A stretch of 64,000 nucleotides of DNA from Patescibacteria group bacterium (GTDB taxonomy: Bacteria > Patescibacteriota > Patescibacteriia > JACRDY01): NCBI GenBank assembly GCA_041650515.1, contig JBAZLA010000001.1, positions 82,710-146,709 of the forward strand, read 5' to 3'. A program made the position numbers and the translations under genes. The notes beneath the pieces were generated by a model. The model searched no databases and was not told where the DNA came from. It was given only the letters and a program-made list of their open reading frames with translations. Below, piece by piece: positions 30,468 through 61,530 of this stretch; the stretch's first letter is position 1, and every line of letters starts with the position of its first letter.

Positions 30468-30620
30468 AAAAAGCAAGAAAGCATACGACCCGGCAGGCCT
30501 AAACAAGAAAACAAAAAAACATACGCGCCTCCCCCGTAGGTCTTTGACCTTTTACGGGGTCGGCGCTAAACAAAAAACAAGATTTGTTTTCTTGTTTTCT
30601 TGTTTTCTTGCTTTTTTGAT
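30468..30620. repeat. Family-D element (catacg-hairpin units plus ttttcttg microsatellite)
   Basis: Two units aagcatacg.cc[hairpin]ctaaacaa.aaaac, then (ttttcttg)x4. Related to 61361-61530. Confidence 0.65.
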
Positions 30621-31186
30621 TATTCGCTCACCCGTTCTAAATAATCATTGGTCTCGGTATTGATCCGAATCAAATCGCCTTGTTTAACAAACAACGGGAC
30701 ATTAACGGTTAAGCCGGTTTCCACAACAGCTGGTTTAAGCACTTTGCCTTGAGCGGTGTCACCACGCGCCCCATCAACCGTATCGGTTACTTGGAGAACG
30801 ATTTTTTTGGGTATATCAATACTCACCGGCCGATCTTCAAAATATAAAACATCAACCTCAACACCTTCTTTTAGATAACCAACTTTTTCAGCGCTCACAT
30901 CCAAACCTAGATCAAACTGCTCATAGGTCTGGGTATTCATAAAATAAGCGGCATTTTCATCTTTGTATAGATAACTGGCTTTACCGCGCTCCAAATCAGC
31001 CTCTTCGGCCTTATCCGTGCCCTTAAAAGTTTTTTCCAAAACAATACCGGTGACCAAATTTTTAATTTTAAAACGCAAAATACTCCCACCGCGGCCCATA
31101 TGAACCTGCTGAGTGTAGATAACCACATAAGGCTGATTATCCACCTTCATCACGGTGCCCATTTTGATATCACTTATCTGAAGCAT
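30620..31186 (-). CDS. efp: Elongation factor P
   Basis: EF-P three-domain sequence (KMGTVMKV...GRGGSILRFK...). The ORF track extends it upstream to 31219. Confidence 0.85.
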   Translation of the reverse strand: MLQISDIKMGTVMKVDNQPYVVIYTQQVHMGRGGSILRFKIKNLVTGIVLEKTFKGTDKAEEADLERGKASYLYKDENAAYFMNTQTYEQFDLGLDVSAEKVGYLKEGVEVDVLYFEDRPVSIDIPKKIVLQVTDTVDGARGDTAQGKVLKPAVVETGLTVNVPLFVKQGDLIRINTETNDYLERVSE

Positions 31187-31222
31187 AAGGTTCAAAAAAG
31201 CAAGAAAGCAAGAAAACAAGTC

Positions 31223-31594
31223 TTACTTTTTACTTTTGTCTATTTTATTATTTAAATTATTAATTTCTCGCCAAAGCATGGCGCCGATCTCTCCTGCTAA
31301 CTTACAGACTAAATCGTAATCACTATTCTTTAAATAGCCCTCAACTAAAGAAAAATGCAACAAATATTTTGATTCCTTAAGCGAACCGTAGGAGCTCTCT
31401 AAAAAATTTAAGCGAATTAACGGCCGGCGACGGGCATACCCTTCAATATAGTTGAGAATAACCGACAGGGCGGCCCGCCTTAATTGAGAAACCGACCCAA
31501 AGAGTTCACTTTTAGGAAATAGACTGCTCAAGCGATAAGCCGAATGAACGTATTTATCCATCTTGATCTTCAAATTTTCCTGATACTCATTCAT
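31223..31594 (-). CDS. Four-helix-bundle protein (TIGR02436 / bAvd-like)
   Basis: FG..SQLRRAA.SV..N..EGY.R and GYL...DYD signature. The ORF track extends it upstream (to 31717) across a lysine-rich repeat-encoded stretch that overlaps rpsR. Confidence 0.55.
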   Translation of the reverse strand: MNEYQENLKIKMDKYVHSAYRLSSLFPKSELFGSVSQLRRAALSVILNYIEGYARRRPLIRLNFLESSYGSLKESKYLLHFSLVEGYLKNSDYDLVCKLAGEIGAMLWREINNLNNKIDKSKK

Positions 31595-31632
31595 ATTGTT
31601 TTCTGGCTTTTTTGCTTTCTTGTTTTCTTGAT

Positions 31633-31896
31633 CTACCGGCTGGTAAATGGCAAGATACACATCACCCGAGCGCGCTTGATAGCCATCGCTAGCTTCCGCT
31701 GATGAGTGGCGCAACAACCGCTCCGACGCTGAGGGGCAATTTTACCATAAGAGGAAATAAACCGACGTAGTAACTGAGCATCTTTGTAATCAATATCAGT
31801 GTAAGTATTGAGACAAAAATAACATTCCTTCTTCTCCGGCGCTTTTTCCTGTCGTTTGTTTGATCGATTGTTTGATCTAGTATTTGGTCTAGGCAT
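31633..31896 (-). CDS. rpsR: 30S ribosomal protein S18
   Basis: CYFC...IDYKD..LLRRFIS..GKI..RR.SG.CA..QRKLA.AIKRAR. Confidence 0.8.
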   Translation of the reverse strand: MPRPNTRSNNRSNKRQEKAPEKKECYFCLNTYTDIDYKDAQLLRRFISSYGKIAPQRRSGCCATHQRKLAMAIKRARVMCILPFTSR

Positions 31897-32039
31897 AATT
31901 TAGTCTGCGGGTCTTAGTACGCAGTCTGCAGGTGAGGTATGCCGTACTTAGGTATTAAACCCTACAGACTGCATACCGTGACCTGCCTACTGGATAAAAA
32001 CTCCACTAATATGAATTATTAATTGAAAGTTTTAGCAAG

Positions 32040-32474
32040 TTAAAAGGGGATATCTTCCACTTTAATTTCTTCTTCAATCACTTCGTCAGCTGGCGCGGCT
32101 TCAGCCTTGGGGGCTGGACTAAAAGTCGCGTTACTACCACTCTGACCAGCGCGATCGAGCATAATCATGTTGTCCAAAATAATCTCAGTGCGATAACGGC
32201 GAACGCCATCTTGGCCTTCCCAGTCGCGAGTCTGCAATCGACCTTCAACATAAACTTTGCTGCCCTTTTTTAGATACTGACCGCAGATCTCGGCTAGCTT
32301 TCGCCAAGCCACAATATTGTGGTACTCGGTTTTTTCTTGTCGCTGACCAGAGGCGTCTTTCCAGACAAAGCTGGTAGCAACGCTAAAAGAAACAGTCGCT
32401 GTCCCCTGTGGCGTAGTCCGCATCTCGGGGTCGCGGGTGAGGTTGCCAATGATCATGGCCTTGTTGAGATTCAT
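32040..32474 (-). CDS. ssb: Single-stranded DNA-binding protein
   Basis: OB-fold core (NKAMIIGNLTRDPE...) and C-terminal acidic tail ending in DIPF. Confidence 0.9.
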   Translation of the reverse strand: MNLNKAMIIGNLTRDPEMRTTPQGTATVSFSVATSFVWKDASGQRQEKTEYHNIVAWRKLAEICGQYLKKGSKVYVEGRLQTRDWEGQDGVRRYRTEIILDNMIMLDRAGQSGSNATFSPAPKAEAAPADEVIEEEIKVEDIPF

Positions 32475-32535
32475 ATTTTTTGCCTTTCGCTAGACCAACT
32501 AGTTGGATCGGTCGATCTAGCTAACTGGTCTTTAT

Positions 32536-33045
32536 TTATAAGATTGAATCGTCAATTAACTCATCCAGTTTTTTGTCCAAATCTTCTAGGCTCACCTTGC
32601 CTGGCTTCTCGGCTTCTTTTTTCTCTTCTTCTTTTTTATCGACTTTTTCTTCGGCGACGATCTCGGCTTTCAGCTTATCTTCGATCACCTTTAGCTCACG
32701 ATCTTTGCGTTCTTTCTCGGCAATCTTCTCCTCAGCGGTTTTTTCATGTTTGGCAACAATTAAATAACGTAATACCTCGGGAGCTAGTTTGAGAGAACCG
32801 TGCAATTTCTTCAGCTCTTCTGGTAATAAATTAAACTCACAGAGCCAATAATAACCGTGGAAAACTTGTTTGATAGCATAAGACAATTTTTTCTTGCCCA
32901 GATTCTCCTCCAAAGTTATCCGACCGTTATGCTCGGCTAAGATCCCTTTAATCTTATTGATTACGCCGGGCATCTCGTCATCGGTGTATTGCGCCGGAAT
33001 AATTGTCAACATCTCGTAGTGCTTTTGATTTTGCTCTTCGATCAT
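32536..33045 (-). CDS. rpsF: 30S ribosomal protein S6 with K/E-rich C-terminal extension
   Basis: S6 core (YEMLTII...KKKLSYAIK...GYYWLCEF). Part of the rpsF-ssb-rpsR operon. Confidence 0.8.
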   Translation of the reverse strand: MIEEQNQKHYEMLTIIPAQYTDDEMPGVINKIKGILAEHNGRITLEENLGKKKLSYAIKQVFHGYYWLCEFNLLPEELKKLHGSLKLAPEVLRYLIVAKHEKTAEEKIAEKERKDRELKVIEDKLKAEIVAEEKVDKKEEEKKEAEKPGKVSLEDLDKKLDELIDDSIL

Positions 33046-33327
33046 AATATAATTTGATTATTAATTATCTAAACTTTTTATTAATAAGATCTAAAAAACT
33101 CCCCAGTGTTCTATGGGAAGCTAAAATAAGCCCTCAGAACACCTTTAATTTACTCGCATATTGCTGTAAATTTAGCCAAATTTGGCCAGTGGAAAAGGTA
33201 GGTTCAAGTTGAATAACCCTAGATTATCACACTCAAGCAGATTTTTCAAGGGTCCCGTAGCGACAATTTATGAATTGCCGCTACCTTTTGTTTTCTTGTT
33301 TTTTGGCTTTCTTGTTATAATACCCCC

Positions 33328-34512
33328 ATGCTATATTATTTTATTCTCGGCAAAAATCCAACCCTGTCCACCTTGGAAATCACCGCTTGGCTCAAAAAAG
33401 AAAAGTGGGAATTTAAAATAAACCAAAATTCCGCCGAAGTTTTGTTAATGGAGATTAAAACCCCATTTGAACCAGCTAAGCTACTCGACCAGCTTGGTGG
33501 CACAATCAAAATCGGCCGGGTGCTAACTGAGGCCGAAATCAACAAAATCACCCCAGAGCTGATAGCGAGTCAGCTCACCCCAGTCGCCGGCAAATTCCAT
33601 TTTGGTTTTTCTACCTATACTCTAGCTAAATCTAACTTCCACCTACCCAAAAACTTTGGTCTAGAAGTTAAACGTCTACTAAAAGAAAAAAACATCTCCT
33701 GCCGCTTAGTTACCTCCAAAGAAAAAAATCTCTCCTCGGTGGTTGTCCAAACCAATAATCTACTCAAGAACGGTGCGGAGATTTGTCTCTTAACTGACTG
33801 GGACAAAGTTTATATTGGGCAAACTCTAACAATCCAAAAATTCGCTGAGTATTCTCAGTTCGATTATGGCCGCCCGGGCCGCGATGCCCACTCCGGCATG
33901 TTGCCACCAAAAATTGCTAAAATGATGATCAACTTAGCCCAGCTGCCGACATCAGCTATAATACTCGACCCCTTCTGTGGCAGCGGCACTATTTTGCAGC
34001 AAGCTAGCTTGATGGGTTACCAAAACTTAGTCGGCTCGGATATCTCAGCTAAGGCAACCGTTGACACTCAAAAAAATTTTGAATTTACTAATAGCCCCGA
34101 ACCGACTCTTTATCAACTTGATTCCCGAACACTCTCCACTAGGCTCAAACCAAAATCGACTGTCGCTATTATAACCGAGCCTTATCTTGGTCCCACGCTT
34201 GGCGGCCACGAACCAATGTCTAAAATTAAAAAAATTATTAGTGAACTATCAGACCTCTATTTAAAATCATTTATTGAGTTTAAAAAAATTCTCCAACCAG
34301 GCGGTCGAGTGATTATTATTTTCCCAATCATCAATGGCCTGCCAGCAATGAATAATGAACAGCTAGAGCAAATTCAAAAATTAGGTTTTAAAAATACTCT
34401 CGAAATACCAGCCGAGCTGAATAATCTAACCATTACCCCTCGCCACTCCATTATTTATGCTCGCCCCGACCAAAAAGTGCAGCGGGAAATCTTTGTCTTT
34501 ACTCAAAAATAA
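33328..34512 (+). CDS. THUMP-domain RNA methyltransferase (Trm11/RlmL-like, N2-guanine class)
   Basis: N-terminal THUMP-like region, then DPFCGSGTI motif I and a D.S motif of UPF0020 methylases. Confidence 0.6.
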   Translation: MLYYFILGKNPTLSTLEITAWLKKEKWEFKINQNSAEVLLMEIKTPFEPAKLLDQLGGTIKIGRVLTEAEINKITPELIASQLTPVAGKFHFGFSTYTLAKSNFHLPKNFGLEVKRLLKEKNISCRLVTSKEKNLSSVVVQTNNLLKNGAEICLLTDWDKVYIGQTLTIQKFAEYSQFDYGRPGRDAHSGMLPPKIAKMMINLAQLPTSAIILDPFCGSGTILQQASLMGYQNLVGSDISAKATVDTQKNFEFTNSPEPTLYQLDSRTLSTRLKPKSTVAIITEPYLGPTLGGHEPMSKIKKIISELSDLYLKSFIEFKKILQPGGRVIIIFPIINGLPAMNNEQLEQIQKLGFKNTLEIPAELNNLTITPRHSIIYARPDQKVQREIFVFTQK

Positions 34513-34592
34513 GTAAGGGCAATTCATGCCTGCCCGCCTCTGGTGGGAATTGCCCCAACAAAAAAAGCCGACCTCGCTGGTCAGTTTTTATT

Positions 34593-34759
34593 CTGTCATC
34601 CCGAGCTGACCTCGAGCGACCCTGAGCAAAGTGAAGGGAAGTCGAGAGGGAAGTCGAGGGATCTAATCTAAGGTACCAGCCAAAGTTTAATGTTGTTTTA
34701 GATTCCTCCACTCGTCCCGTAAAGGTGCTTCGCGCCCACGGGACTCGGTCGGAATGACA
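34593..34759. repeat. Family-B repeat (tgtcatcccgag ... ctcggtcggaatgaca subtype)
   Basis: Inverted termini. Internal gagggatctaa...tagattcctccactcg shared with copies at 41626 and 52407. Confidence 0.7.
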
Positions 34760-34769
34760 AACAAAAAAT

Positions 34770-34815
34770 GCCCTAAAATAAAAAAAGGAGGCTGATGGCG
34801 CAAGTGCCGGCCTCC
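34770..34815 (-). terminator. Rho-independent terminator (minus strand)
   Basis: ggaggccggcacttgcgccatcagcctcc followed by a T7 run on the minus strand. Confidence 0.65.
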
Positions 34816-34854
34816 GTAAATGACCATTTGGGGCTGGTCAAAGCCCTGCCGTGT

Positions 34855-35298
34855 TCAGTCGGCGCGGACGTCTTCCCGGCCCGGGAAAAACTTGAGCTCC
34901 GAGGGCACAGAAAGTGTCGGCGTCACGATGGTGGTCATAAACCCAAACTGCCGGCTCTTGGCGATGTGCCGGGCGATGAAGTACATCATCGCCGAATTGA
35001 ACTGGCTGGCCAGTTCCGCCAGCTTGTCTTCCGGCACGGGTACTTCCTCGGTGTGGAGTTCGACCCAGACCATCGCCTGTTCGCCGTGGTCGCCGAGACT
35101 GACGATCGGCGGATCGACACAGATGTCTTCCGCCTTGCACGGCATTTCCACAACATCGTTGCCCTGATCGTCATCAACCATGGCGAAGATGTCGTTGGTC
35201 TCGATCAGCGTCCTGGCCAGGCCCCCCAGCTCATGGGGGCGGTGTACCAGACCGGTATCACGCGCCGCAATGCTGGACATACGAATTACGATACGCAT
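34855..35298 (-). CDS. Acidic hypothetical protein (147 aa) in a GC-rich island
   Basis: AAGGAGGAAACC-ATG. Plausible composition. The overlapping plus-strand 215-aa ORF is R/H-rich antisense noise. Confidence 0.5.
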   Translation of the reverse strand: MRIVIRMSSIAARDTGLVHRPHELGGLARTLIETNDIFAMVDDDQGNDVVEMPCKAEDICVDPPIVSLGDHGEQAMVWVELHTEEVPVPEDKLAELASQFNSAMMYFIARHIAKSRQFGFMTTIVTPTLSVPSELKFFPGREDVRAD

Positions 35299-35640
35299 TG
35301 GTTTCCTCCTTGGTTATCACATTTCGACCACCTGAAATCAAACTCTCAAGCCATTGCTGGCTCAATTATCCGACTCCGCCTAAAAAACCCGGAAAAAAGT
35401 AGCCCTATTTACTCTTTTCCCGCTCTTTTAGGTACTAATTGAGAGCGTTGAATAATTATGAAACGCTCTCATCCTGAGCAAAGCGAAGGATCTCTTACGG
35501 TTTGACTACCACGATAATCACTTAGCTCGGTATGAGATAATTAAATCATTCAATAGTTAAAATTAGGAACTTTAGACCTTAACATATTTTCCATTATCTG
35601 TCAACAATTCTCTTTGCCCAAGGAAAATATTACCATCTTC

Positions 35641-35720
35641 CTCCCCTTACCAAGGGGAGGGTTGGGGTGGGGTCGTCCCTCCCCTTACCAAGGGGAGGGC
35701 AGGGTGGGGTTGCCGGGGAA
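35641..35720. repeat. Tandem direct repeat, 2 x 40 bp, each with hairpin ctcccc-ttaccaa-ggggag
   Basis: cctccccttaccaaggggagggttggggtggggtcgtc repeated twice, then the terminator-like ggccgggaaactgatcggcc. Confidence 0.6.
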
Positions 35721-35810
35721 ATAAAAAAGGCCGGGAAACTGATCGGCCCATGGGGCTTAGCAGCGCCCGGCGAGATTAGATCACGATGACGCAATTACTG
35801 CCCCTCCTTC

Positions 35811-36023
35811 CTACCGATGTTTTGGTACCGGTCCGTCAGCAAACATTAGCCAAAAGAAAGGTAATAAACAAATTGCCCCTCCCATTTTGGCCATCTCGCG
35901 ACCGCCATTATATGCCCAGCGGCTAAGGCGCCAGAGCGTCAGCCAATAAAGCACATAAAGCGTCGGCGGCGGTAAGATAATCAACCAGTACACCCAGTAA
36001 TTGGTAAAGACATCTGTCTTCAT
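35811..36023 (-). CDS. Small hydrophobic protein (about 70 aa), GC-rich
   Basis: GGGGGGAGCT-ATG start. Two predicted transmembrane segments. Confidence 0.3.
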   Translation of the reverse strand: MKTDVFTNYWVYWLIILPPPTLYVLYWLTLWRLSRWAYNGGREMAKMGGAICLLPFFWLMFADGPVPKHR

Positions 36024-36135
36024 AGCTCCCCCCAAGTTAGAAGACCCTACTTATATTGTAGCCCCTTTAAAAAGAAAAAGAAGAGACAGTTTCTAATCTT
36101 GTCGATAATATTCAAAAAAAACAAAATACTAGATA

Positions 36136-36325
36136 CCCCTGGGGTCTGGGGCGAATATGGCGCCAAGTCCCGCTCCAACCTTTCTTGATTACGCCGAGGG
36201 GTGGGACGGGTAAATCCGTAGGCGGATTAACAATGAATTGCGCCTTATAAGCCCCAGGGCTTTTTTGCCCGCCTAGACTCGCTAGGCGAGGCTGGCTACT
36301 TTTTTAGTCATAAAAAAGTAGACAA
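36136..36325 (+). repeat. Family-A structured repeat, copy 1
   Basis: Closing stem ccctggggtctgggg...gccccaggg followed by a T6 run. Conserved blocks are ggcgccaagtcccgc, ttgattacgcc and gggacgggtaaa. It ends with a covarying palindrome ctactttttta-gtca-taaaaaagtag. Confidence 0.6.
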
Positions 36326-36526
36326 CTTCATAGACGGGAGAGGAATCCCTCCGCTCGGATTTCACCCCGAGCCCTTCGGCGGAGTTCATCAACAAACTGA
36401 TTCTTCGCCTCGCCCTGCGGGCTCGCTCAGAATGATGAAATAAAAGAAAACAAAAAAACCACCAATATCCTATCCGCGGCTTTTTTATTCTTAATGATGT
36501 TCCTATCCTCCTACCGTCCTATCCTC

Positions 36527-37615
36527 CTAATTACTAAACCTAAAATAAACCGTATCCCCATCTTGCACTACATAGTCTTTACCCTCGAGGCGGACCAGAC
36601 CGCGCTCTTTACAACCCGCTTCACCGTATTGAACAAAATCCTGCCAATTGCAAACTTCCGCCCGGATAAAACCTTGCTGGATATCCGTGTGAATTTTCCC
36701 CGCGGCCTCGGGCGCCTTAGCTCCCCGCGTCACGGTCCAAGCGCGCGTTTCGTCTGGACCAGTAGTCAGGAAAGTAATTAAATTCAAAATCTGATAACTT
36801 TTTTTGATCAATTTATCCAAACCGCTTTCATTCATGCCTAATTCTTTGAGATACTCCTTTCTTTCCTCATCATCTAGCTCTGCCAACTCCGCTTCAATTT
36901 TGGCTGAGATACAAACCACTCGCTCTGGATCAAGGCCTTCTAGTACGGGCAGGGCAGTGCCCTGCCCCCTACCCACCGCTGATTCGTCAACATTCATCAC
37001 ATAAATCACCGGCTTGTTGGTCAATAAATTCAAATCATGCAACGACTTTTTTTCTTCCTCATTTAAACCCAAATCGCTGACTAATTTACCCTGATTCAAA
37101 CCATCTTTAACGCGATTAACCAATTCAATATTAAATTCATCTTCTTTACTCGCGCCGCTCTTGGCTTTTTTATTTAATTCCGATAACCGGTGGGACACCG
37201 TTTCCAGATCTTTAATTGCTAACTCAGTATTAATCGTGGCAATATCCGACTGCGGGTCAACCTTATTATTAACGTGAATAATATTGGGATCAAAAAAATC
37301 GCGCACCACTTGGACAATCGCGTCCACCTCGCGAATATTAGCCAAAAATTTATTGCCTAGTCCTTCGCCAACGCTGGCGCCTTTGACCAATCCGGCGATA
37401 TCCACAAACTCAATCACCGTCGGCACAATTTTGGCTGACTTGGCCACCATGGCTAATTTTTCCAGCCGTTCGTCCGGCACCGCCACCACGCCAACGTTTG
37501 GTTCGATGGTGCAAAAAGGATAATTAGCAATATCAATTTGTTTTTTGGTCAGCGCTTTAAATAACGTTGATTTACCAACGTTGGGCAGGCCGACAATTCC
37601 GATGGCCAAAGACAT
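36527..37615 (-). CDS. ychF: Ribosome-binding ATPase YchF
   Basis: GIVGLPNVGKSTLF, NxxD, and a C-terminal TGS domain. The ORF track extends it upstream to 37672. Confidence 0.85.
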   Translation of the reverse strand: MSLAIGIVGLPNVGKSTLFKALTKKQIDIANYPFCTIEPNVGVVAVPDERLEKLAMVAKSAKIVPTVIEFVDIAGLVKGASVGEGLGNKFLANIREVDAIVQVVRDFFDPNIIHVNNKVDPQSDIATINTELAIKDLETVSHRLSELNKKAKSGASKEDEFNIELVNRVKDGLNQGKLVSDLGLNEEEKKSLHDLNLLTNKPVIYVMNVDESAVGRGQGTALPVLEGLDPERVVCISAKIEAELAELDDEERKEYLKELGMNESGLDKLIKKSYQILNLITFLTTGPDETRAWTVTRGAKAPEAAGKIHTDIQQGFIRAEVCNWQDFVQYGEAGCKERGLVRLEGKDYVVQDGDTVYFRFSN

Positions 37616-37626
37616 AAATAATAATT

Positions 37627-48595: not shown

Positions 48596-48821
48596 TATAA
48601 ATAAATAGTAAAATAATTTTAAAAGCTATAAAAATCAAAGTGCTAATAACCAAGCCACCCACTTTGTGAAAGTTGCTCCCAGCTGCTAACTAATTAAAAC
48701 CTACTGATTTAAATCTTGACTGAATAGAATAAATCCGCTAAACTAAGCCTACTTTATACTATTAAAAAACTAACTATTTCCGGCTGCTGGGCACTAACCA
48801 CTAGCCACTAACCACTAGCAT

Positions 48822-50578: not shown

Positions 50579-50669
50579 CGTCATTGCGAGCGTAGCGAAG
50601 CAATCTCCTGAATAATCCACCAGATTGCTTCGTCGCCCCCCGATAAATCGGGGAGCTCCTCGCAATGAC
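50579..50669. repeat. Family-B repeat (gtcattgcgagcg...gctcctcgcaatgaca)
   Basis: Carries hairpin gacgaagcaatctcctgaataatccaccagattgcttcgtc, identical to copies at 29070 and 54310. Confidence 0.8.
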
Positions 50670-50732
50670 AATAACAACAGTTTAGCTCAAAATCTAGCGA
50701 AAATCAACTAAATATGCTAGGTTAAACTAAGT

Positions 50733-52409: not shown

Positions 52410-52543
52410 ACTTCCCGTCATCGCGAACGAAGCGTAAGCGGAGTCGAGGGATCTAATGGTTAATTACCAATATTCTCGGAATATCCCATTAGATCCCTCC
52501 ACTCCGCCCCGACGATTACGTCGGGGCTTCGGTCGGGATGACA
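52407..52543. repeat. Family-B repeat between the Cys-rich paralogs
   Basis: gtcatcgcgaacgaagcg...gtcgggatgaca. Same subtype as 41626. Confidence 0.75.
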
Positions 52544-52553
52544 ATAAAGACCT

Positions 52554-54212: not shown

Positions 54213-54286
54213 GGGAGTACTTGCCCCGTGATCCGCCTTAGGCGGATTTTATGGGGCTATCAGAAGGAAATATATTAAATTCCACT

Positions 54287-54385
54287 GTCATTGCGAGCCC
54301 GCCGCAGGCGGACGAAGCAATCTCCTGGGTAAACCACCAGATTGCTTCGTCGCTCCCGCCTAAAGGCGGTCGCTCCTCGCAATGA
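54287..54385. repeat. Family-B repeat after paralog B
   Basis: Preceded by a duplicated gene-end fragment atcagaaggaaatatattaaa. Carries hairpin gacgaagcaatctcctgggtaaaccaccagattgcttcgtc. Confidence 0.8.
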
Positions 54386-54507
54386 CGCTAAAAAACTATA
54401 CCCACCTGCCAAAACTGCCAACCAGCAGTTTTTTGATTTGACATTATTTCTAAAAAGGCTAAGCTTAAACATACTCTCAATAGTTCTTTACCAAGTAGGA
54501 GGGGTTT

Positions 54508-54873
54508 ATGAAACCCAAACGCGGCAGCCAGAAGATCGAGGTGGATTTTCTGTACGTGGTGATGCCACGGGCACATCGAGTGGTCTTCGTTGCCACTCAA
54601 GACGTGCCCCACGGAGTCAACCTCGAAAAAGTGGTCCAAAAATATGTTTTAAATGAACTCAAAAAAGCGGGGGAAGGACATCGTTTCTTCTGGTATCGTC
54701 TCGACAACCACATGAGGCCGCCGAGGAACCGCCCTCGTCCAGGCGATTTCCATGTACTCCAGGTCTATTACGGATCGACGGCAAATCGGGACGCAACCAA
54801 GGATATGTCTCAACCAGATTCCAAATGGCTGCGACAGGCTGTCCATGCCCTGCTGCGGCAACTGGCGGCCTAG
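54508..54873 (+). CDS. Hypothetical protein (121 aa), GC-rich islet
   Basis: AGGAGGGGTTT-ATG. Has a downstream hairpin and T-run. Confidence 0.5.
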   Translation: MKPKRGSQKIEVDFLYVVMPRAHRVVFVATQDVPHGVNLEKVVQKYVLNELKKAGEGHRFFWYRLDNHMRPPRNRPRPGDFHVLQVYYGSTANRDATKDMSQPDSKWLRQAVHALLRQLAA

Positions 54874-54969
54874 CCGCTATCAGACACGCTGTGTCCAACC
54901 CAGTCATTACGACTGGTTTTTTATTAAAAAAAGTCGCGAAGCGACACCTTTATTTTTAATTCTTAATTT

Positions 54970-57789
54970 TTAATTTTTAATTTCTTTAGTCTCGCCCCAA
55001 TTATCTCCCACCTCGATTTTAACCTCAATCGGCACCCGGAGTTTATAAACATTCTCCATCGTTTCTTGAATCAATCTAGCCGCTTTTTTAACCACGCTAT
55101 TTTTGACTTCAAACACTAGTTCGTCGTGCACCTGCAAAACCATTTTAACTTCGTCGGGCTGGAATTCTTGCTTTAACTTCTGATCAACTTGAATCATGGC
55201 TAGTTTGATTAAATCAGCCGCCGTACCCTGGATCGGTGCGTTAATGGCCATCCGCTCGGCGGCGTTGCGCACCTGTGCCAGACCAGAACTGATCTCAGGC
55301 AAATAGCGCACTCGGCCAAAAAGCGTTTCCACATAACCATGCTCACGCGCCGAGGCTAAAGTCTCACGGATAAACTGCTCGACACCGCTAAAAGCCGAAA
55401 AATATTTGGTGATAAACTCCTGAGCTTGCTCGCGTGAAATACCAGTCCGCCAAGCTAGGCCGTAAGCACCCATGCCATAAAGCACACCAAAATTAACTTC
55501 TTTAGCATTGCGGCGCATCTCTTTGGTGACCTCCGAGAGCTTAACTCCATTGATCTCAGCCGCGGTGGCAGTATGAATGTCTTCATTATTTTGAAAAATC
55601 TCCAACATTTTCTTGTCCTCAGCTAAAGAAGCCACAATCCGCAGCTCAATTTGCGAATAGTCAGCCGCCAGGATCTGATAACCTTTTTCGGCCACAAACG
55701 CCCGACGGATCTGTCCACCCAATTCAGTCCGAATGGGAATATTCTGGAGATTAGGTTCAGACGAAGACAGGCGACCCGTTGAGGTAACAGTTTGATTAAA
55801 ACTAGTGTGCACCCGGCCAGTAATCGAATCAACTAGATCGGGCAGAGCTTGAGTATAGGTACTCTGGAGCTTAGCGAGCTCGCGGTGCTGGGAAATATAA
55901 TCAATTATTTCGTGCCGACCACGCAGTTTTTCCAGTTCGGCCGCAGCCGTCGAGATACCGGTCTTGAGTTTTTTTAGTCCACCAGTAGAGATTTTAAGCT
56001 TATCAAACAATACTTCTTTAAGCTGCAACGGCGAATCAATATTAAAGTCGGTACCAGCCAACTGATGAATTTTTTGGTCCGCGATCAGACGCTCTTTTTC
56101 AATCCGAGCATCAAGCTTAGCCAAAAATTTAGGATCAATTTTAACTCCGGTTAATTCCATTTGAACTAAAATCGGAATCAACGGCATCTCAATTTTTTCC
56201 ATCAGGCCCAAAATATTTTTGCGCTCCACTTCATTACTTAATTTTTGGTAAAGCTGATAGGTATAATCAGCATCTTCGCAACAATATTCAGCTACTCGCT
56301 CAACTGGCACTTGGTCTAACGTCAGCTGGTCTTTGCCTTTGGGACCGATTAAACTTTCAATCGGGATCATCTCATGCCCCAGCTCCGTAAAAGCCAAGGT
56401 ATCCAAATCATGCGCCCGGCTACCGGAGTTAAGTAGGTAAGAAGCAATCATGGTGTCGAAATAAACTCCTTGGACATCAATCCCAGCCTGCTGCAGAATC
56501 TCTAAATCATATTTCAAGTTGTGACCGATTTTTTGGACGTTCTTATCTTCTAAAATCTTTTTAATTTCATCGCCGATGGCCGGTAGCCGATGGCCGATGG
56601 CTAAATACCAACCCTCTCCAGCTCGCCAGCTAAACCCAATGCCAACCAACTTAGCTTCCAAGGTATTTAAACCAGTGGTTTCGGTATCAATCGCTATTAC
56701 TGCTTGTTTCTTTAATTCAACCAAAAAACTTTTTAAACTCTTGGCATCATCAACCAAATGATAACCTTTGGGCATTTTAAAATCACTGCGGGCACCAGAC
56801 TCCTGCACGGGCAGGGCACTGCCCTGACCCCTACCGACTGCAAATAAATCTCCCTGCTTTTGTTGCTGTTTACCACTCAGCTCGGGCAATCGATTTAATA
56901 GCGATTTAAACCCCAAATGTTGAAAAAGCATAAACACCGCTTGATTATCAAATCCGCGCACCGCCGCTTCCTGAAGATTAAACTTGATCGGCGCATCAGT
57001 CACAATCGTCGCTAAGTGCTTGGATAATAAGGCATCTTTCTCATGTTCTAACAGCAGTTCTTTGATCCGTGGCTTAATTTCTTCACCTTCTTGTTTTCTT
57101 GCTTTTTTGTTTTCTTGCTTTTTTGTTTTCTTGATTTCTTGATACAGGTTCTCCAACGTACCAAACTGTTGCAGCAATTCCGTAGCAGTTTTTTCACCCA
57201 CACCCTTGACCCCGGGCAGATTATCCGATGGATCACCCCGCAGGCCCTTATAATCAACCATCTGCGCTGGCGCTAAGCCATAACGCTCCTTGACGGCCGC
57301 GGCATCGTAGATAACCGTATCGTTAATGCCTTTTTTGAGCGTAAAAACGGCGGTGTCATCGTTAATCAACTGCAATGTATCCATGTCGCCAGTAACAATA
57401 ATATTTTCTACCTGCCCATCTGTCTGACGACAAATTGTGCCAATCAAATCATCGGCCTCATAATTATCTTCTTTGTAAATCGGAATATTAAACGCCCGAG
57501 CTAACTGCTCTACTACCGGAATCTGGGCATAGAGCTCGTCCGGCTGTTTTTGGCGGGTGGCTTTATACTCGGTATATTCTTGATGACGAAAAGTTTTTTT
57601 GCCTTTGTCTAAAGTCAGGACAACATAATCCGGCTTAAGATCTTTATAAATTTTGAGCAAAATCAAAGCAAAGCCGTAAACAGCATTAACCAACATCCCG
57701 TCTTTACTGGTCAGCGGCGGCAAAGCGTGGAACGCCCGATGGATCAGGGCATTGCCGTCAATAACAATTAGTTTTCCTTTCTTAGACAT
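54970..57789 (-). CDS. polA: DNA polymerase I
   Basis: 5'-3' exonuclease, 3'-5' exonuclease and polymerase (motif A DYSQIELR, motif C QVHDE) domains. A repeat-encoded K/Q/E-rich in-frame insertion sits in the inter-domain linker (57085-57145). Confidence 0.95.
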   Translation of the reverse strand: MSKKGKLIVIDGNALIHRAFHALPPLTSKDGMLVNAVYGFALILLKIYKDLKPDYVVLTLDKGKKTFRHQEYTEYKATRQKQPDELYAQIPVVEQLARAFNIPIYKEDNYEADDLIGTICRQTDGQVENIIVTGDMDTLQLINDDTAVFTLKKGINDTVIYDAAAVKERYGLAPAQMVDYKGLRGDPSDNLPGVKGVGEKTATELLQQFGTLENLYQEIKKTKKQENKKARKQEGEEIKPRIKELLLEHEKDALLSKHLATIVTDAPIKFNLQEAAVRGFDNQAVFMLFQHLGFKSLLNRLPELSGKQQQKQGDLFAVGRGQGSALPVQESGARSDFKMPKGYHLVDDAKSLKSFLVELKKQAVIAIDTETTGLNTLEAKLVGIGFSWRAGEGWYLAIGHRLPAIGDEIKKILEDKNVQKIGHNLKYDLEILQQAGIDVQGVYFDTMIASYLLNSGSRAHDLDTLAFTELGHEMIPIESLIGPKGKDQLTLDQVPVERVAEYCCEDADYTYQLYQKLSNEVERKNILGLMEKIEMPLIPILVQMELTGVKIDPKFLAKLDARIEKERLIADQKIHQLAGTDFNIDSPLQLKEVLFDKLKISTGGLKKLKTGISTAAAELEKLRGRHEIIDYISQHRELAKLQSTYTQALPDLVDSITGRVHTSFNQTVTSTGRLSSSEPNLQNIPIRTELGGQIRRAFVAEKGYQILAADYSQIELRIVASLAEDKKMLEIFQNNEDIHTATAAEINGVKLSEVTKEMRRNAKEVNFGVLYGMGAYGLAWRTGISREQAQEFITKYFSAFSGVEQFIRETLASAREHGYVETLFGRVRYLPEISSGLAQVRNAAERMAINAPIQGTAADLIKLAMIQVDQKLKQEFQPDEVKMVLQVHDELVFEVKNSVVKKAARLIQETMENVYKLRVPIEVKIEVGDNWGETKEIKN

Positions 57790-57941
57790 GGGTATATTTT
57801 ACCATTTCGGACCAAATAAAAAAACCGCCTAACTTCTCTAATTTGTCATCCTAAGCCCTTCGGAATGACAATTAAAAATACTTTATCCCTAACAACATTA
57901 AATTTTTCTAAACAAAAAATCACCCTTCAAGGTGGTTTGGA

Positions 57942-57990
57942 GGCCAGGAGGGGATTTGTCTCCCTACGGGAGATCCCCCATAGGGGGACA
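57942..57990 (-). repeat. tRNA-Cys 3'-end duplicate (ggccaggaggggatttg) + double mini-hairpin module
   Basis: 17-nt identity to 58313-58329, followed by tctccc-tac-gggaga and tccccc-ata-ggggga hairpins. Confidence 0.7.
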
Positions 57991-57997
57991 CCCCTGA

Positions 57998-58279
57998 TTA
58001 TCCAACTGAGTGATTACCTATTCTTAATTTAATAATTTCTTTCTGCTGGCTATTGTGTTTCAACTCATATTCTCTTTTAGCAGCTACCAAATTACTAACA
58101 TAAGCCTCATAATAAACAAGAGCTAACGGCCTTTTGTCTTTTGTTGATTTTACTTCACCCTGATTATGTTTTAAAAAACGGGAACTCAAATCAGAAGAAT
58201 AGCCAATATATAACCACCTCGGATCTCTTATACTCTGTAGGGCATAGACATAAAACATGCCATAAGTATAAAAAACCAA
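57998..58279 (-). CDS. GIY-YIG nuclease domain protein (small, about 86-93 aa)
   Basis: FYVYAL...YIGYSSDL..R...H..G. Likely start is MFYVYAL at 58258. Confidence 0.7.
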   Translation of the reverse strand: MVFYTYGMFYVYALQSIRDPRWLYIGYSSDLSSRFLKHNQGEVKSTKDKRPLALVYYEAYVSNLVAAKREYELKHNSQQKEIIKLRIGNHSVG

Positions 58280-58311
58280 AAGTTAAATATTTCTAAACTT
58301 ATCAAACCAAA

Positions 58312-58383
58312 AAGGCCAGGAGGGGATTTGCACCCCTGCATAGAGGTTTTGCAGACCTCTGCCTTACTACTTGGCTACCTGGC
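58312..58383 (-). tRNA. tRNA-Cys (anticodon GCA)
   Basis: Acceptor ggccagg/cctggcc. Anticodon loop cUGCAaa. T-arm aggggTGCAAATcccct. Confidence 0.8.
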
Positions 58384-58413
58384 CGAAAAAGAAAAAAAAA
58401 TTTAAACAATGAT

Positions 58414-58503
58414 CAGGTTTTGTCTCCCTACGGGAGATCCCCCACAGGGGGACAGACCTCTGCCTGGATTTTATCCGCCTTGGGCGGAACTTGGCTACCT
58501 GGC
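58414..58503 (-). pseudogene. Degenerate tRNA-Cys copy with insertions in D-loop and anticodon loop
   Basis: Shares ggccaggtagccaagt...aggcagaggtctg...caaaacct with the intact gene. There is a 30-nt double mini-hairpin inserted after anticodon position 34 and a hairpin ccgcccaaggcgg in the D-loop. The 3' half is missing. Confidence 0.6.
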
Positions 58504-58600
58504 CGAAATTATTAAATCTCACCCTATAATAACAAAACAACTATCAAAAATCAACCTTACTTTTTTATTATTACTCAAACAATATAGAATAATAAACCCA

Positions 58601-58793
58601 ACTGGGGTTTGGGGCGCCCGCCTAGACTCGACGTCTAGTCGAGGCTGGAATACGGCGCGCAGCCGAGCTCCGACCTTTTTTGATTACGCCAAGGAGCGAG
58701 GCGGGTAAAACGAGCTGGGGATGAACAACGAATCGCGCCTGATGAGTCCCAAAGCTTTTTTGTGTTACTTTTTTAGTTATAAAAAAGTAACAA
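58601..58793 (+). repeat. Family-A structured repeat, copy 2
   Basis: ggggtttggggcg...agtcccaaagc-T6 closing stem. Has ttttttgattacgcc and gcgggtaaaacgag blocks, and the terminal palindrome gttactttttta-gtta-taaaaaagtaac. Confidence 0.6.
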
Positions 58794-58902
58794 CCACTAT
58801 TTTTCCAAAAAAAAGAAGCAGGTGGGCTTCTGTCTAGTGTTGTATCCTCCTTGGAAAACACTAGCTAGAAGCTTCCTGCTTTTGGGGGTATATTGCAACC
58901 CC

Positions 58903-59718
58903 TTAGGCGTCATCCTCCTCCCACGGATACCGGTTGTCCGGTTCGGACTCGGGAACGTGTGGCCCCCGCCGTGGCGGTTCCTCGCATTGCTGCTCGGTCC
59001 GCCCGCGACGCCGGCGGCGGCGGATGATCAGCCAAACGACCAGCAACAGCACCGGGATGCCAATCCGCAGCGCCCAGGTCTTGATCGCCAGATTCCGCTG
59101 GTCCGATTTGGCCTTGGCGTGGCTGGCATTGATCATTTCCATCGCCGCTTGGATGTCAGCCGGCGTGGCTTCGACTGCGGCGTCCTCCTTGAGCCGACGG
59201 TTTTCGGCCAGCGCCGTTTCCAGCGCTGCAGCCTGATCAGCCTGCGCCTGAGCGAGCTGGCCAGCCGGGCTGTCGGGCAACGGATCCGCTTGGTCTTCCA
59301 AGCCCCGCGGATACCAGACCGACGCCGAAGCGCCGGAACTGGCACCCATCAGCTTGTAGCGACCAGAAGCGGACACGTTCCAGGTGGATTCACCGGGAGG
59401 CAATTCGGTCTTTTCTCCAGATCCCTGAAGGGCAAAGACCTTGCCCGAATGGACCGACACCGTCAGCTTGGGTGCCCGCAACGGGTCCATCCAGACGGTC
59501 CGCACGACTTCGTTTTTGGGCAAGCTGTACGGCCCGTTCCAGACGGGGTTTGGGGTTTGTGTTGCTGTCTGCTTCGCCGCGGAGTTGGTCTTGAGCGACT
59601 CGAGCTGCTTTTTGGCCAGCTCGATCAGCTTATCCAGACCAATCTTGGCTTCACCGGTCAGACCGCCGGCCGTCCGTTCGAGAAGCTCAATCTCCTCTTC
59701 GGACAGCGGCTGGCCCGC
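58903..59718 (-). CDS. Hypothetical protein with C-terminal transmembrane segment and poly-Arg tract; continuous in frame with the upstream gene across a TAG
   Basis: Open frame from the codon after TAG(59719-59721) to 58903. The post-stop sequence is coiled-coil-like (EEEIELLERTAGGLTGEAKIGLDKLIELAKKQLESL). The ORF track starts at a TTG (59523). GC-rich. Confidence 0.4.
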   Translation of the reverse strand, partial: AGQPLSEEEIELLERTAGGLTGEAKIGLDKLIELAKKQLESLKTNSAAKQTATQTPNPVWNGPYSLPKNEVVRTVWMDPLRAPKLTVSVHSGKVFALQGSGEKTELPPGESTWNVSASGRYKLMGASSGASASVWYPRGLEDQADPLPDSPAGQLAQAQADQAAALETALAENRRLKEDAAVEATPADIQAAMEMINASHAKAKSDQRNLAIKTWALRIGIPVLLLVVWLIIRRRRRRGRTEQQCEEPPRRGPHVPESEPDNRYPWEEDDA

Positions 59719-60414
59719 CTAGATCTTGGTGCGGATTGCCTCGAGCCGGACAATCTTCAGCGCCTGCTCGTAGTCGGCGTACTCCGCCGCGATCTCGGTT
59801 GCCACCGTCTGGGCCGGATTAACTTGATCAGTTGCCCACCAGAACGGGGTGTTGTGGCCACAGACCCGGACCCAAATCCCCGAAGGAAAAAGGCCGAGAA
59901 TCAGGATCACCAGGACCAACCGGACGCCGGACGCCGCGAGGCGTTTGGGCCACATGCCCGTGGGCAGGCCCCACGCACGGCCGATTGCCCAAAGGCAAAG
60001 TAGCACCAGAAACAGACCGACGATAAAGGTGACGCTGAAGTGGAGCGGGGTGAGGGTCAGCCCGATGATGATAATCAACGGGTAGACCAGGATGGTCGCG
60101 AGAGTCAGGGTCACCGCCCCCCAACCGCGCTTGGCGATTCGCGCCGCCAGATCGGCCAGGTAGAGGGAGATGCCTTTGACCTTGTCCTCGGTAAGACCGA
60201 GGAGTGCGCCCAGCTCCTTGACGACCTTGGTCACCTTTTCCTCGAGAAACAGGGCCAAAACACCGCCGACCAACCAGGCGAGTACTTTCTGCTTGCGGGT
60301 CATCGGCTTGTCGTCTTCGATTCCGAGCCAGGCGAGGAGCATGGTGAAAAACTGAACGTACGGATCTTTCGTTTCGCCGAGGGGATCGGCTGTGGGCTTG
60401 ATGTTCTCGGACAT
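59719..60414 (-). CDS. Polytopic membrane protein (231 aa), GC-rich operon
   Basis: GAAGGAGTACTGCC-ATG. About 5 transmembrane segments. Ends at an in-frame TAG. Confidence 0.5.
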   Translation of the reverse strand: MSENIKPTADPLGETKDPYVQFFTMLLAWLGIEDDKPMTRKQKVLAWLVGGVLALFLEEKVTKVVKELGALLGLTEDKVKGISLYLADLAARIAKRGWGAVTLTLATILVYPLIIIIGLTLTPLHFSVTFIVGLFLVLLCLWAIGRAWGLPTGMWPKRLAASGVRLVLVILILGLFPSGIWVRVCGHNTPFWWATDQVNPAQTVATEIAAEYADYEQALKIVRLEAIRTKI

Positions 60415-60456
60415 GGCAGTACTCCTTCGTTCGTTGCTATCGAGTTGATTCGTTGG

Positions 60457-61110
60457 TTACTTCTTCTTGGGCATTAGCGCGGACATCATGGACGACTGCA
60501 AATGATTGGACATGGCCGTCGCGAAACCCCGCAAGGGAGACCGCTTGATCCAGCCGTGGTCCAAACAATACTGCGTTCGTTGCCAATCGTCCTGCCGCTC
60601 CTTGCCCCAACTTCCCATGAGCAGATACAAATACGGCAAGTCGTCGCGACTCTTGGTCGCAGCGACTACCTGCCGGAAATGATCCTGCGCCCAGGTTGGG
60701 AGATGGGTATACCAGTTGTTGAAAGCCTCATCGGCCGCTTTCAGAGCCGCTTCATCAAGTTTAAAGACTTTGACGGTCTCTTTTTTGGTTCTCAGCTGAG
60801 CACCTTCACGCGCCGGCGGAAGCTCTTTGTCCACGATAACGCTTCCCTCCATGAGGGTATGCGCTTTCTTGGCTTCAACCTCCATCGAGGCGGCTTCGTC
60901 TCCGAAACCGAGTCCGCCAACAGTACCAACCGCTTGCGCTTTTCCGGCGCCAGCGATTGTCTGTTTTATGCCGAATAGGCGATCAAGTACGAAGGCGGCA
61001 ATAGCCGCTACCGTGAAATCGCCAGCATCCGGTACAAAATGACGCAGAAAGCTCTGGACACCAGACGCAGGTTCACTTGCCGCCGAAGCGGTTTTCTTGT
61101 CCTCGGACAT
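60457..61110 (-). CDS. Hypothetical protein (217 aa), first gene of GC-rich operon
   Basis: ACGGAGGATACGAAA-ATG. No recognisable motif. Confidence 0.5.
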   Translation of the reverse strand: MSEDKKTASAASEPASGVQSFLRHFVPDAGDFTVAAIAAFVLDRLFGIKQTIAGAGKAQAVGTVGGLGFGDEAASMEVEAKKAHTLMEGSVIVDKELPPAREGAQLRTKKETVKVFKLDEAALKAADEAFNNWYTHLPTWAQDHFRQVVAATKSRDDLPYLYLLMGSWGKERQDDWQRTQYCLDHGWIKRSPLRGFATAMSNHLQSSMMSALMPKKK

Positions 61111-61360
61111 TTTCGTATCCTCCGTTTCTATCCTGTTATAAACTCTGAAACGACCAAAGGACCACCCTCTAGCCGTTATATTCTCACGCTTATATATTTA
61201 GCAGATTAAAAAGTCGTCGAAACGACCCAAAATCCGCCTTTTTCAAGGGACAGTCAGACTCGCTTTAGCCCGAAAGCTAATTTGAGACTAACTTTATATG
61301 ATAGCATATTTAGAGATAAAAGTCAATGATTTAAACCAAAAAATGGCCAAAATTAGCAAA

Positions 61361-61530
61361 AAAACAAAAAAGCATACGCCCCGACATAACATCGGGGCTA
61401 AACAAAAAAGCAAGGTTATCAGCCTTGTTTTCTTGCTTTTTTGTTTTCTTGTTTTATTTTTTAGGCCGAGTGATCCGCCAATTCGGCGAAAAACGAGGCC
61501 GTATGCTTTCTTGTTTTATTGCTTTATTGA
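61361..61530. repeat. Family-D MITE-like element with terminal inverted repeats aaagcatacgcc / ggccgtatgcttt and internal (ttttcttg)n
   Basis: Inverted termini, internal hairpin ccccgacataacatcgggg, and a microsatellite ttgttttcttgcttttttgttttcttg. Confidence 0.65.

Follow-up and report, generated by a model that had tools for sequence, protein, structure and literature searches.

Octamer repeat arrays as probable inverted arms of an intervening-sequence-like gene cassette in a Patescibacteria genome, with a related array in frame in polA

A 64-kb stretch of DNA from a Patescibacteria group bacterium, hereafter the window, contains a dispersed octamer repeat (family D) whose arrays lie between genes and, in frame, inside polA, the gene for DNA polymerase I. 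With somewhat better than even confidence, we read family D as the inverted arms of a gene cassette, similar to the intervening sequences (IVS) of 23S rRNA, that encodes a four-helix-bundle protein, together with derivatives of this cassette that lack an open reading frame (ORF); the array in polA would belong to the same family. Support for it includes one complete cassette in the window and the presence of the same type of arms on the homologous gene in other genomes of the Candidate Phyla Radiation (CPR).

The octamer repeat in the window

Family D has the unit RAAARCAA, or TTGYTTTY when read on the complementary strand. With no T on the first strand and no A on the second, the arrays are free of stop codons in all six frames. 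A preliminary description of this DNA had placed a T-rich motif at several sites, including 31187-31225, 31600-31640, 33285-33320 and polA. Arrays of TTGTTTTC/TTGCTTTT are indeed found at each site it named, and the repeat is more frequent than in shuffled sequence. The count of TTTTCTTG in the window (mean GC 44%) is 22, compared to 6.9 ± 2.7 in shuffles, and there are 33 matches to the 16-mer TTGTTTTCTTGYTTTT at a tolerance of 3 mismatches, compared to 5.5 ± 2.3. About ten scattered single copies of TTTTCTTG correspond to chance expectation. The matches to TTGTTTTCTTGYTTTT cluster at 30469-30615, 31196-31219, 31596-31635, 33288-33311, 57091-57138 and 61352-61526.

Tandem Repeats Finder (TRF) reported period-8 arrays at 30584-30618, 31193-31220, 31596-31630, 33288-33316, 57088-57141 and 61424-61455. 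Tandem arrays of all periods number 31 in the window and 3.55 in 20 dinucleotide shuffles; the corresponding values are 5 and 0 for period 7, and 8 and 0.25 for period 8, an enrichment of about 50-fold for the two periods. A search of the whole window against Rfam at gathering thresholds yielded seven tRNAs, no match at the family-D elements and no rRNA.

A four-helix-bundle cassette between rpsR and efp

The complete cassette consists of the following features.

31595-31632, minus strand: 5' (left) arm, an A-rich array of ATCAAGAAAACAAGAAAGCAAAAAAGCCAGAAAACAAT on the coding strand (sequence, TRF, fold)
31223-31594, minus strand: four-helix-bundle gene, 123 amino acids (aa), the loop of the cassette (Pfam PF05635, 23S_rRNA_IVP)
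31188-31222, minus strand: 3' (right) arm, a T-rich array of GACTTGTTTTCTTGCTTTCTTGCTTTTTTGAACCTT on the coding strand (sequence, TRF, fold)

The gene order on the minus strand is rpsF (32536-33045), ssb (32040-32474), rpsR (31633-31896), the 123-aa gene and efp (30620-31186). The 123-aa protein matches PF05635 over residues 13-107 (E=8.5e-20), with a weak bAvd-like match in addition. Both spacers that flank its gene are family-D arrays throughout, in inverted orientation. The left arm spans the whole distance between the rpsR stop codon and the ATG of the four-helix-bundle gene, and the right arm occupies the entire spacer from the stop codon of that gene to the ATG of efp. In the minimum free energy fold of 31170-31650, positions 31595-31632 pair with 31188-31222 and the ORF forms the loop; the energy of the arm-arm duplex is -42.1, compared to -24.4 ± 4.2 for shuffles. 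A second four-helix-bundle gene was looked for in the window and not found.

In the complete cassette, an A-rich array thus abuts the ATG, and its T-rich complement lies beyond the stop codon. In the transcript, the arms would pair as a stem of about 25-35 bp with the ORF as its loop. This architecture is that of a 23S rRNA intervening sequence, but located in a protein-coding operon, rpsF-ssb-rpsR-cassette-efp.

Because the arms are stop-free, they mislead ORF calling. The four-helix-bundle gene was called as 164 aa (31223-31717) from a TTG within rpsR, the database copy of the protein (P0241) has 163 aa and is thus 40 residues too long, and a spurious 98-aa ORF (61298-61594) covers the whole family-D element near 61.4 kb.

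Family-D arms accompany the gene across CPR phyla

All nine members of the gene subfamily that were examined, from CPR phyla and in at least eight gene contexts, have an A-array up to the ATG and a T-array after the stop codon, and in all nine the energy of the arm-arm duplex is far under that of shuffled controls. Two loci (L162 and L274) were found solely by scanning metagenomes with the 19-mer TTGTTTTCTTGCTTTTTTG, which returned at least 118 stretches; both carry homologs of the gene with family-D arms, in different gene contexts. Five more homologs (L279, L280, L281, L282 and L284; 67-71% identity) were picked blind to their flanks. Their contexts are Fic/PrgI/TraC, response regulator (RR)/T2SSE, hydrolase/tRNA, DprA/TopA and HisKA-RR/T2SSE, and in five of five the A-rich array ends at ATG AAT GAx and the T-rich array lies 3' of the stop codon. 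In the sister genome (L275/L276) the orthologous cassette, whose protein is 69% identical, also lies between rpsR and efp, with arms in L275 that are perfectly complementary over 27 bp. There is no cassette in the rpsR-efp spacer of L277 or L278. The spacer of L277 holds an ORF-less hairpin of inverted CATGTTA heptamers, and that of L278 is 118 nt long and holds nothing more.

Variants of the unit covary between the two arms: CAATAAAR is matched by YTTTATTG in L282, and CAACAAAA by TTTTGTTG in L275. The arm termini are ATCAA…TTGAT, and the left arm is often directly 3' of the upstream stop codon. Other four-helix-bundle subfamilies, represented by two more copies in L275 and one in L242, have different heptamer arrays as flanks. 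For the four-helix-bundle protein, 2293 homologs reach E<=1e-20. They are 60-75% identical across CPR phyla, which among the same groups is above the identity of PolA (about 55%) and EF-P (about 45-60%). We infer that the cassette is mobile and moves together with its arms, given its at least eight unrelated contexts across CPR phyla.

Several points weigh against the cassette reading. Our analysis covered 64 kb of a 472-kb contig. No target-site duplication was found. The cassette has no known mechanism of mobility, and four-helix-bundle proteins are not known to act as recombinases. Processing of the cassette by RNase III and a function at the level of RNA are suggested by analogy.

In viral contigs, the degenerate array pattern TTGYTTTYTTGYTTTYTTGYTTTY proved too loose, with more than 119 matches, mostly simple repeats of giant viruses. 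A pattern for the hairpin unit gave two matches, both within coding sequence and both attributable to chance. The exact 19-mer had four matches in viral contigs.

An array in frame in polA

The gene and its array are as follows.

54970-57789, minus strand: polA, DNA polymerase I, 939 aa (Pfam domains)
57088-57141, minus strand: in-frame solo family-D array, (CAAGAAAACAAAAAAG) x3.2, A-rich on the coding strand (TRF)

PolA contains PF02739 (5_3_exonuc_N), PF01367 (5_3_exonuc), PF01612 (DNA_pol_A_exo1) and PF00476 (DNA_pol_A). It is a 100% match to a protein from a Patescibacteria metagenome-assembled genome, and its nearest relatives are P0002 (locus L026, 71% identity), P0003 (L029, 71%) and P0004 (L031, Falkowbacteria, 67%). 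A PolA scan of genome contigs gave only distant relatives (<=50% identity), too remote for a comparison of strains; the closer ones came from the protein search and contig look-ups.

The array has a period of 16 (3.2 copies, 94% matches) and also a period of 8. As shown by self-BLAST, 57090-57128 aligns to 61424-61462 (92% over 39 nt, E=2.5e-8) and 57091-57128 to 30584-30621 (92% over 38 nt). Only a single arm orientation is present, with no inverted partner. The array encodes aa 217-234, QEIKKTKKQENKKARKQE, and the reading frame is intact; the in-frame translation proposed previously, QEIKKTKKQENKKARKQEGEE, is correct. A DNA period of 16 nt does not divide by 3. Each of the three units is thus translated in a frame of its own, and the peptide is non-repetitive although the DNA is periodic, which shows that the repeat arose at the level of DNA.

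The preliminary description had placed this segment in the linker between the 5'-3' and the 3'-5' exonuclease domains. It lies instead inside PF01367 (aa 173-282), the C-terminal SAM/H3TH fold of the 5'-nuclease; the inter-domain linker is aa ~283-342, in which the predicted local distance difference test score (pLDDT) is <50 for 305-335. In the AlphaFold2 model (mean pLDDT 84), a helix at 212-226 is followed by a stretch of low confidence, with pLDDT <50 at 228-235, and the flanking helices score >88.

Alignment with orthologs identified the segment as an insertion, as had been suspected. The alignment with Taq Pol I has one clean insertion of 16 residues, that with a mycobacterial Pol I has two gaps of 8 residues, and the loop is 8 and 12 residues longer than in the two nearest relatives. 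A variable-length, mostly K-rich loop occupies this site in 25 CPR orthologs. Lysine-rich orthologous loops that were not derived from DNA repeats had been named as evidence that would count against a repeat origin; the loops are present, but in two of the three nearest relatives the loop is likewise built from 8/16-nt DNA repeats.

We propose that the polA array is a solo array of the arm type, 48 nt long (3 x 16) and in the A-rich sense orientation. Its site would be a fast-evolving, surface-exposed and already K-rich loop of the 5'-nuclease H3TH/SAM domain, where it would be translated as a helix extension and a disordered Lys/Gln/Glu loop. The lack of stop codons and a length divisible by 3 would explain why such an insertion is tolerated. 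As they are open in six frames, family-D arrays can survive inside ORFs, unlike the heptamer arrays nearby that contain TAA or TAG.

Other features of the polA sequence were noted. The array holds a -1 slippery heptamer, A_AAA_AAG, in the correct frame (57118-57124, minus strand; codons ACA AAA AAG). Programmed -1 frameshifting at this site was considered and rejected, as the -1 frame ends at TGA after 12 codons, inside the 5'-nuclease domain, and a useful product is unlikely. A second array, GCCGATG x4.3 (56572-56601), encodes AIGHRLPAIGD in another variable loop (aa ~390-400); in this loop L026 has inverted heptamer arrays (GTTCGCA/GCGAACA) and L031 has an array of AGAAATAAAGAAATT. A third, ATTTTTA x4.6 (54952-54983), overlaps the polA stop codon, so that the last residues (…KEIKN and the stop) are encoded by the array.

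Copying into polA or slippage in place

The evidence tips slightly toward the polA sequence having been acquired or homogenized from the family-D arrays of the genome rather than being wholly independent. Its units, CAAGAAAA and CAAAAAAG, are the two commonest units of the intergenic arrays in the window, and their alternation in polA is identical to that in the arrays at 61428-61451 and 30600-30618. An identical 32-mer, along with the peptide KKTKKQENKK, turns up in unrelated ORFs of other contigs, including the N-termini of a ribonucleotide reductase and a pilin-like protein. The unit in the polA loop of the sister genome is CAACAAAA, a variant that both arms of that genome's cassette share and that the window lacks. 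A further family-D array lies in another loop of PolA in L026 (aa ~118-130). In the PolA of L031, one 33-nt array of 16-nt period (AGAAATAAAGAAATTR x2; EIKKLRNKEI) occupies two loops (10647-10681 and 11165-11197), and the presence of the same array in two loops of one protein requires copying. No family-D array was found in polA at the loci sampled from genomes without family D (L029/L278, L031 and L277). Template switching or ectopic conversion onto a ATCAAGAAA seed may have been the route by which the sequence was copied.

Alternatively, the array may be an independent microsatellite that grew in place by slippage from an ancestral A-rich Lys/Gln/Glu seed, CAAGAAATCAAGAAA, with no sequence moved; its resemblance to family D would then reflect shared A-richness, freedom from stop codons and a lineage-wide tendency to tandem duplication of 7-8 nt. 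We regard this as a serious possibility, although at rather less than even probability. Several observations favor it and count against copying. The ancestral loop was probably already CAAGAAATCAAGAAA (QEIKK), which amounts to two near-units, and with two near-units local slippage alone could build the array; the seed is visible at the 5' edge of the array and in L031, as AAAGAAATAAAGAAA. The scattered single copies of TTTTCTTG, being at chance level, would make common seeds, and the loop is K-rich in almost all 25 orthologs. Arrays of period 7 or 8 with many different units, enriched in the window as described above, also occupy intergenic DNA and the PolA loops of the relatives. The GCCGATG array of polA occurs nowhere else in the window, so the birth of arrays in situ does occur. 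Moreover, the sharing of motifs within a genome is based on two genomes only.

Slippage in place accounts poorly for the identical alternating 16-nt unit at two intergenic sites, for the identical 32-mer in several unrelated contigs, for the private unit common to the polA loop and the cassette arms of the sister genome, and for the single 33-nt array in two loops of L031 PolA. The earlier proposal of a dispersed repeat domesticated in PolA is thus borne out in that a dispersed, hairpin-forming family shares its DNA motif with polA, but expansion in situ from a CAAGAAATCAAGAAA seed remains a live alternative to domestication.

Elements without an ORF

Two intergenic family-D elements carry no ORF, and one further array stands alone.

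30463-30621, minus strand: ORF-less family-D compound hairpin, directly 3' of the efp stop codon
61340-61538, no strand assigned: ORF-less family-D composite of two inverted modules (inverted repeats, fold)
33288-33316, plus strand: solo T-rich family-D array upstream of a methyltransferase gene (33328-34512; Pfam)

Read along the minus strand, the element at 30463-30621 begins with an A-array (30621 to 30584), followed by a 3-nt loop, a short T-array, TTTA and a GC hairpin (30525-30566). Its second half consists of GTATG with a T-array, TTTA, a small GC hairpin (30487-30499), and GTATG with a T-array that extends to 30463. Inverted repeats were detected in it. In the composite at 61340-61538, the minus-strand module has its GC hairpin at 61378-61398 and the plus-strand module at 61464-61500; the central array hairpin is at 61400-61446. 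The composite is adjoined on its two sides by the terminator of a pilin gene (61540-61555) and by a conserved promoter (61326-61298, minus strand). Folding, which had been suggested for the element ends, gave structures far more stable than those of shuffles: the RNA fold of 30463-30621 has -71.8 kcal/mol (z=-7.5) and that of 61340-61538 has -102.6 kcal/mol (z=-10.1).

Six clean modules were compared, three in the window (30570, minus; 61402, minus; 61460, plus), one in L026 and two in L197, a groundwater contig. Their common design is an A-array of about 30 nt, a loop of 3-7 nt, a short T-array, TTTA, a GC hairpin, GTATG and a T-array. The junctions around the hairpin are conserved (TTGTTTA-hairpin-CGTATGYTTTYTTG). 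Across the three genomes the flanks of the module are almost invariant and the GC hairpin core is different in every copy (GCGCC…GGCGC, GCCCCGA…TCGGGGC, GGCCC-AAA-GGGCC and, twice, GGCC-NNNN-GGCC), which argues that the hairpin is kept as a structure and not as a sequence copy. At the orthologous site downstream of the pilin gene, L029 has a plain terminator alone and then the conserved promoter, TTGAC…TATGCTAT, and L026 and L031 have other 7-mer arrays. The composite is therefore lineage-specific.

The arms of the ORF-less elements would fold on themselves, with GC-rich hairpins of terminator type and variable sequence between conserved junctions. By analogy, the elements most likely would act in RNA as bidirectional terminator or processing hairpins between genes. 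Consistent with this, terminator-like consensus matches are present at 30499-30487 (minus), 61398-61378 (minus) and 61407-61431 (plus), with the tail beginning after GUAUG. A promoter-like match was also obtained at the 61.4-kb element. Two observations speak against such a role: the orientation of the modules relative to the upstream gene varies, with four of six co-oriented and two anti-oriented, and GUAUG separates the U-rich tract from the GC hairpin, which is atypical for intrinsic terminators.

The elements might be nothing more than bidirectional intrinsic terminators with A/U tracts expanded by slippage and with lineage-specific flanks, in which case the arrays around the four-helix-bundle gene would be its own untranslated regions. 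We consider this unlikely, although it has several observations in its favor. The GC hairpin with its T-rich tail scores as terminator-like, the elements lie directly after stop codons, and in many metagenome contigs a T-array is found 3' of a canonical terminator hairpin. However, the arms enclose an ORF in nine of nine cassettes and end exactly at the ATG, solo arrays without a hairpin exist (33288-33316 and polA), and two of the six modules are anti-oriented to the upstream gene. Because the arms remain with the gene across at least eight contexts, they behave as part of a unit more than as local terminators.

The 61.4-kb element had previously been described as resembling a miniature inverted-repeat transposable element (MITE), that is, a non-autonomous transposon with terminal inverted repeats whose transposase is encoded elsewhere and which could have left a copy or fragment in polA. 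This is very unlikely. The element is small, non-coding and hairpin-forming, it is absent at the orthologous site in L029, and inverted termini are present (61355-61381 and 61497-61523, 27 nt, 89% complementary). These termini, however, correspond to the junctions and flanking arrays of a pair of inverted modules, and modules of either orientation have them. MITE copies share their core, whereas the internal GC hairpins differ in all six modules from the three genomes and the flanks alone are conserved. On inspection, no recognizable target-site duplication was seen at either locus, where array ends blur the boundaries. In addition, the sole ORF-bearing relative encodes a PF05635 four-helix-bundle protein and not a transposase, no transposase was seen beside any of the nine cassettes, and the copy in polA is a lone arm without an inverted partner.

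Further readings of the ORF-less elements were tried and rejected. The flanks GCATAC and TAAAC are not mutually complementary and, by inspection, do not fit the RYYYAAC/GTTRRRY pattern of attC (integron-like) sites. A promoter reading of TTGTTT…TATGCT fails because the spacing tracks the length of the hairpin, from 11 to about 50 nt. The elements do not mark the edges of GC-rich islands, since the relatives, too, have GC-rich genes beyond the pilin gene. Readings as DNA-uptake sequences, Hfq sites or Rho rut sites found no support in the density of motifs or in base composition.

The end of the solo array at 33288-33316 merges into a TATAAT hexamer (33316-33321), 6 nt 5' of the methyltransferase ATG. 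In this start region (33316-33330) TATAAT is followed by the ATG with no Shine-Dalgarno sequence. Judging from these letters, the methyltransferase mRNA may be leaderless, with a -10 element formed by the end of the array, which would give the array a role in the promoter.

Comparison with known systems

Intervening sequences and the four-helix-bundle ORFs that they carry were recognized decades ago, but their function and mode of spread are not understood.

The Coxiella IVS is 428-444 nt long, with a 28-bp terminal-repeat stem and an S23p four-helix-bundle ORF, and is excised by RNase III; tandem heptamers just 5' of the ORF vary in copy number among strains (PMC4990558). IVP ORFs have also been reported inside CPR rRNA insertions (PMC11270868). 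The cassette resembles the IVS of Coxiella, Leptospira and Salmonella (PMC4990558) in its length of about 430-445 nt, its inverted-repeat stem of about 28 bp, the PF05635 ORF in the loop, the short tandem repeats directly 5' of the ORF (heptamers in Coxiella, octamers in the cassette) and a sporadic distribution, as for a selfish element. Unlike the IVS, which lie in helix 25 or 45 of 23S rRNA, the cassette resides in spacers of protein-coding operons (rpsR-efp, DprA-TopA, RR-T2SSE and others). Its arms consist wholly of a conserved octamer array common to CPR phyla, and it has ORF-less and solo-arm derivatives, one of them inside a gene. Cleavage of the cassette by RNase III would be expected by analogy to the IVS.

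Like the polA array, Rickettsia palindromic elements (RPE; PMC10969869) are dispersed intergenic hairpin repeats that also occur in frame in housekeeping genes, with the encoded peptide at a position compatible with the fold. The RPE is a whole palindrome of about 150 bp that encodes a conserved peptide, whereas the polA array is a single arm of 48-54 nt that is readable in any frame and for which, unlike the RPE, local slippage is a credible alternative origin. The ORF-less modules resemble the Correia elements (CREE) of Neisseria and the SPRITE of pneumococcus, small intergenic inverted-repeat hairpins that are co-transcribed and can be cut by RNase III, mimic terminators or create promoters at their ends (PMC2649163, PMC3049150, PMC10969869). 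Those elements have a conserved core and, in the case of Correia, TA target duplications; in the family-D modules the flanks and junctions alone are conserved and the GC hairpins vary. The modules also differ from both Correia elements and SPRITE in sharing their arms with an ORF-carrying cassette.

Like coding microsatellites, the polA array is a tandem repeat in an ORF with a unit (8/16 nt) that is not a multiple of three, but that it is a contingency (phase-variable) locus, in which slippage changes the length of the repeat and so switches or modulates the protein, is highly improbable even with an in-frame A_AAA_AAG in the array: polA is an essential, single-copy housekeeping gene in which any one-unit change truncates within the 5'-nuclease domain, the copy number stands at a frame-preserving 48 nt, the sister PolA including its arrays is identical on five contigs with a 90% cluster of one member, and no length variation was seen, with no variants of the window PolA on record (one contig, one cluster member) in a look-up by exact identity, which may miss variants. 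In full-text literature searches, neither tandem-array arms on the four-helix-bundle cassettes of CPR operons nor family-D arrays in coding loops were found described.

Other repeats and genes in the window

Heptamer and octamer arrays of other sequence (TACTAAC, GGTACTA, TCCTATCC and CACTAAC) lie at gene boundaries (4376-4395, 6179-6206, 36501-36529 and 48792-48819). Because most of their units contain TAA or TAG and the period is 7 nt, they provide a stop codon in all three frames. The relatives have many such boundary arrays, often an array together with its inverted array.

Another dispersed palindromic family, gtcattgcgagg…gacgaagcaatct…agattgcttcgtc…cctcgcaatgac, occurs at 7617-7696, 29065-29114, 50596-50677 and 54311-54394 (80-98% identity). 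At 36153-36328, 58648-58794 and 62161-62303 there is a repeat rich in GC, about 115-140 nt long (75-82% identity), with the palindrome ttacttttttagttataaaaaagtaac after it. It may be a structured RNA, and had no Rfam match at gathering score. Two intergenic repeat pairs were also found. One (24894-25012/26314-26432, 86% over 121 nt) flanks AT-rich genes (28-36% GC); the other is 41613-41751/52402-52543 (75% over 147 nt).

The genes 3' of the type IV secretion system pilin gene are GC-rich, 55-64% compared to 44% for the genome, in the window (58822-61110) and in all three relatives (L026 7199-9312; L029 6800-9359; L031 6935-9003). Their products have no detectable similarity between genomes, and the promoter ahead of them is conserved. 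Directly 3' of the family-D hairpin that follows efp is a 381-aa ORF (29252-30397, minus strand; GC 52-60%) with at least five zinc-ribbon-like CxxC…CxxC pairs and no Pfam family. Small stand-alone GIY-YIG genes lie beside tRNA or housekeeping genes in the window (57998-58279), in L029 (4469-5036 and 19024-19266, with several paralogs per locus) and in L278 (6673-6960).

Implications

The results place one IVS-type subfamily in protein-coding operons across CPR phyla and give it a conserved, recognizable arm, neither of which was returned by our literature searches. With the 19-mer of the arm, metagenomes can be screened for cassettes, for their ORF-less derivatives and for solo arms, and RNase III processing of operon transcripts can be put to the test. 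In practice, arms free of stop codons lead gene callers astray.

Outside Rickettsia, the in-frame copies provide a bacterial example of a housekeeping enzyme in which hairpin-repeat DNA is translated. They point to selfish hairpin DNA as a possible seed of protein loops, and to one source of the many lineage-specific low-complexity insertions in CPR proteins.

A bolder proposal, which we put forward as speculative and rather doubtful, is that the cassette is an active selfish element of the CPR whose octamer arms are copied to new sites, possibly aided by its own (Avd-like) protein. The copies would leave ORF-less hairpins behind in spacers. Being open in all six frames, they would also give rise to Lys-rich in-frame insertions in the loops and tails of essential proteins. 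If so, the insertions in PolA loops and in the N-terminal tails of the ribonucleotide reductase and the pilin-like protein in other contigs would be its products, and a mobile RNA-stem element would be seeding novelty in protein sequence across the whole radiation by a route that has not been described.

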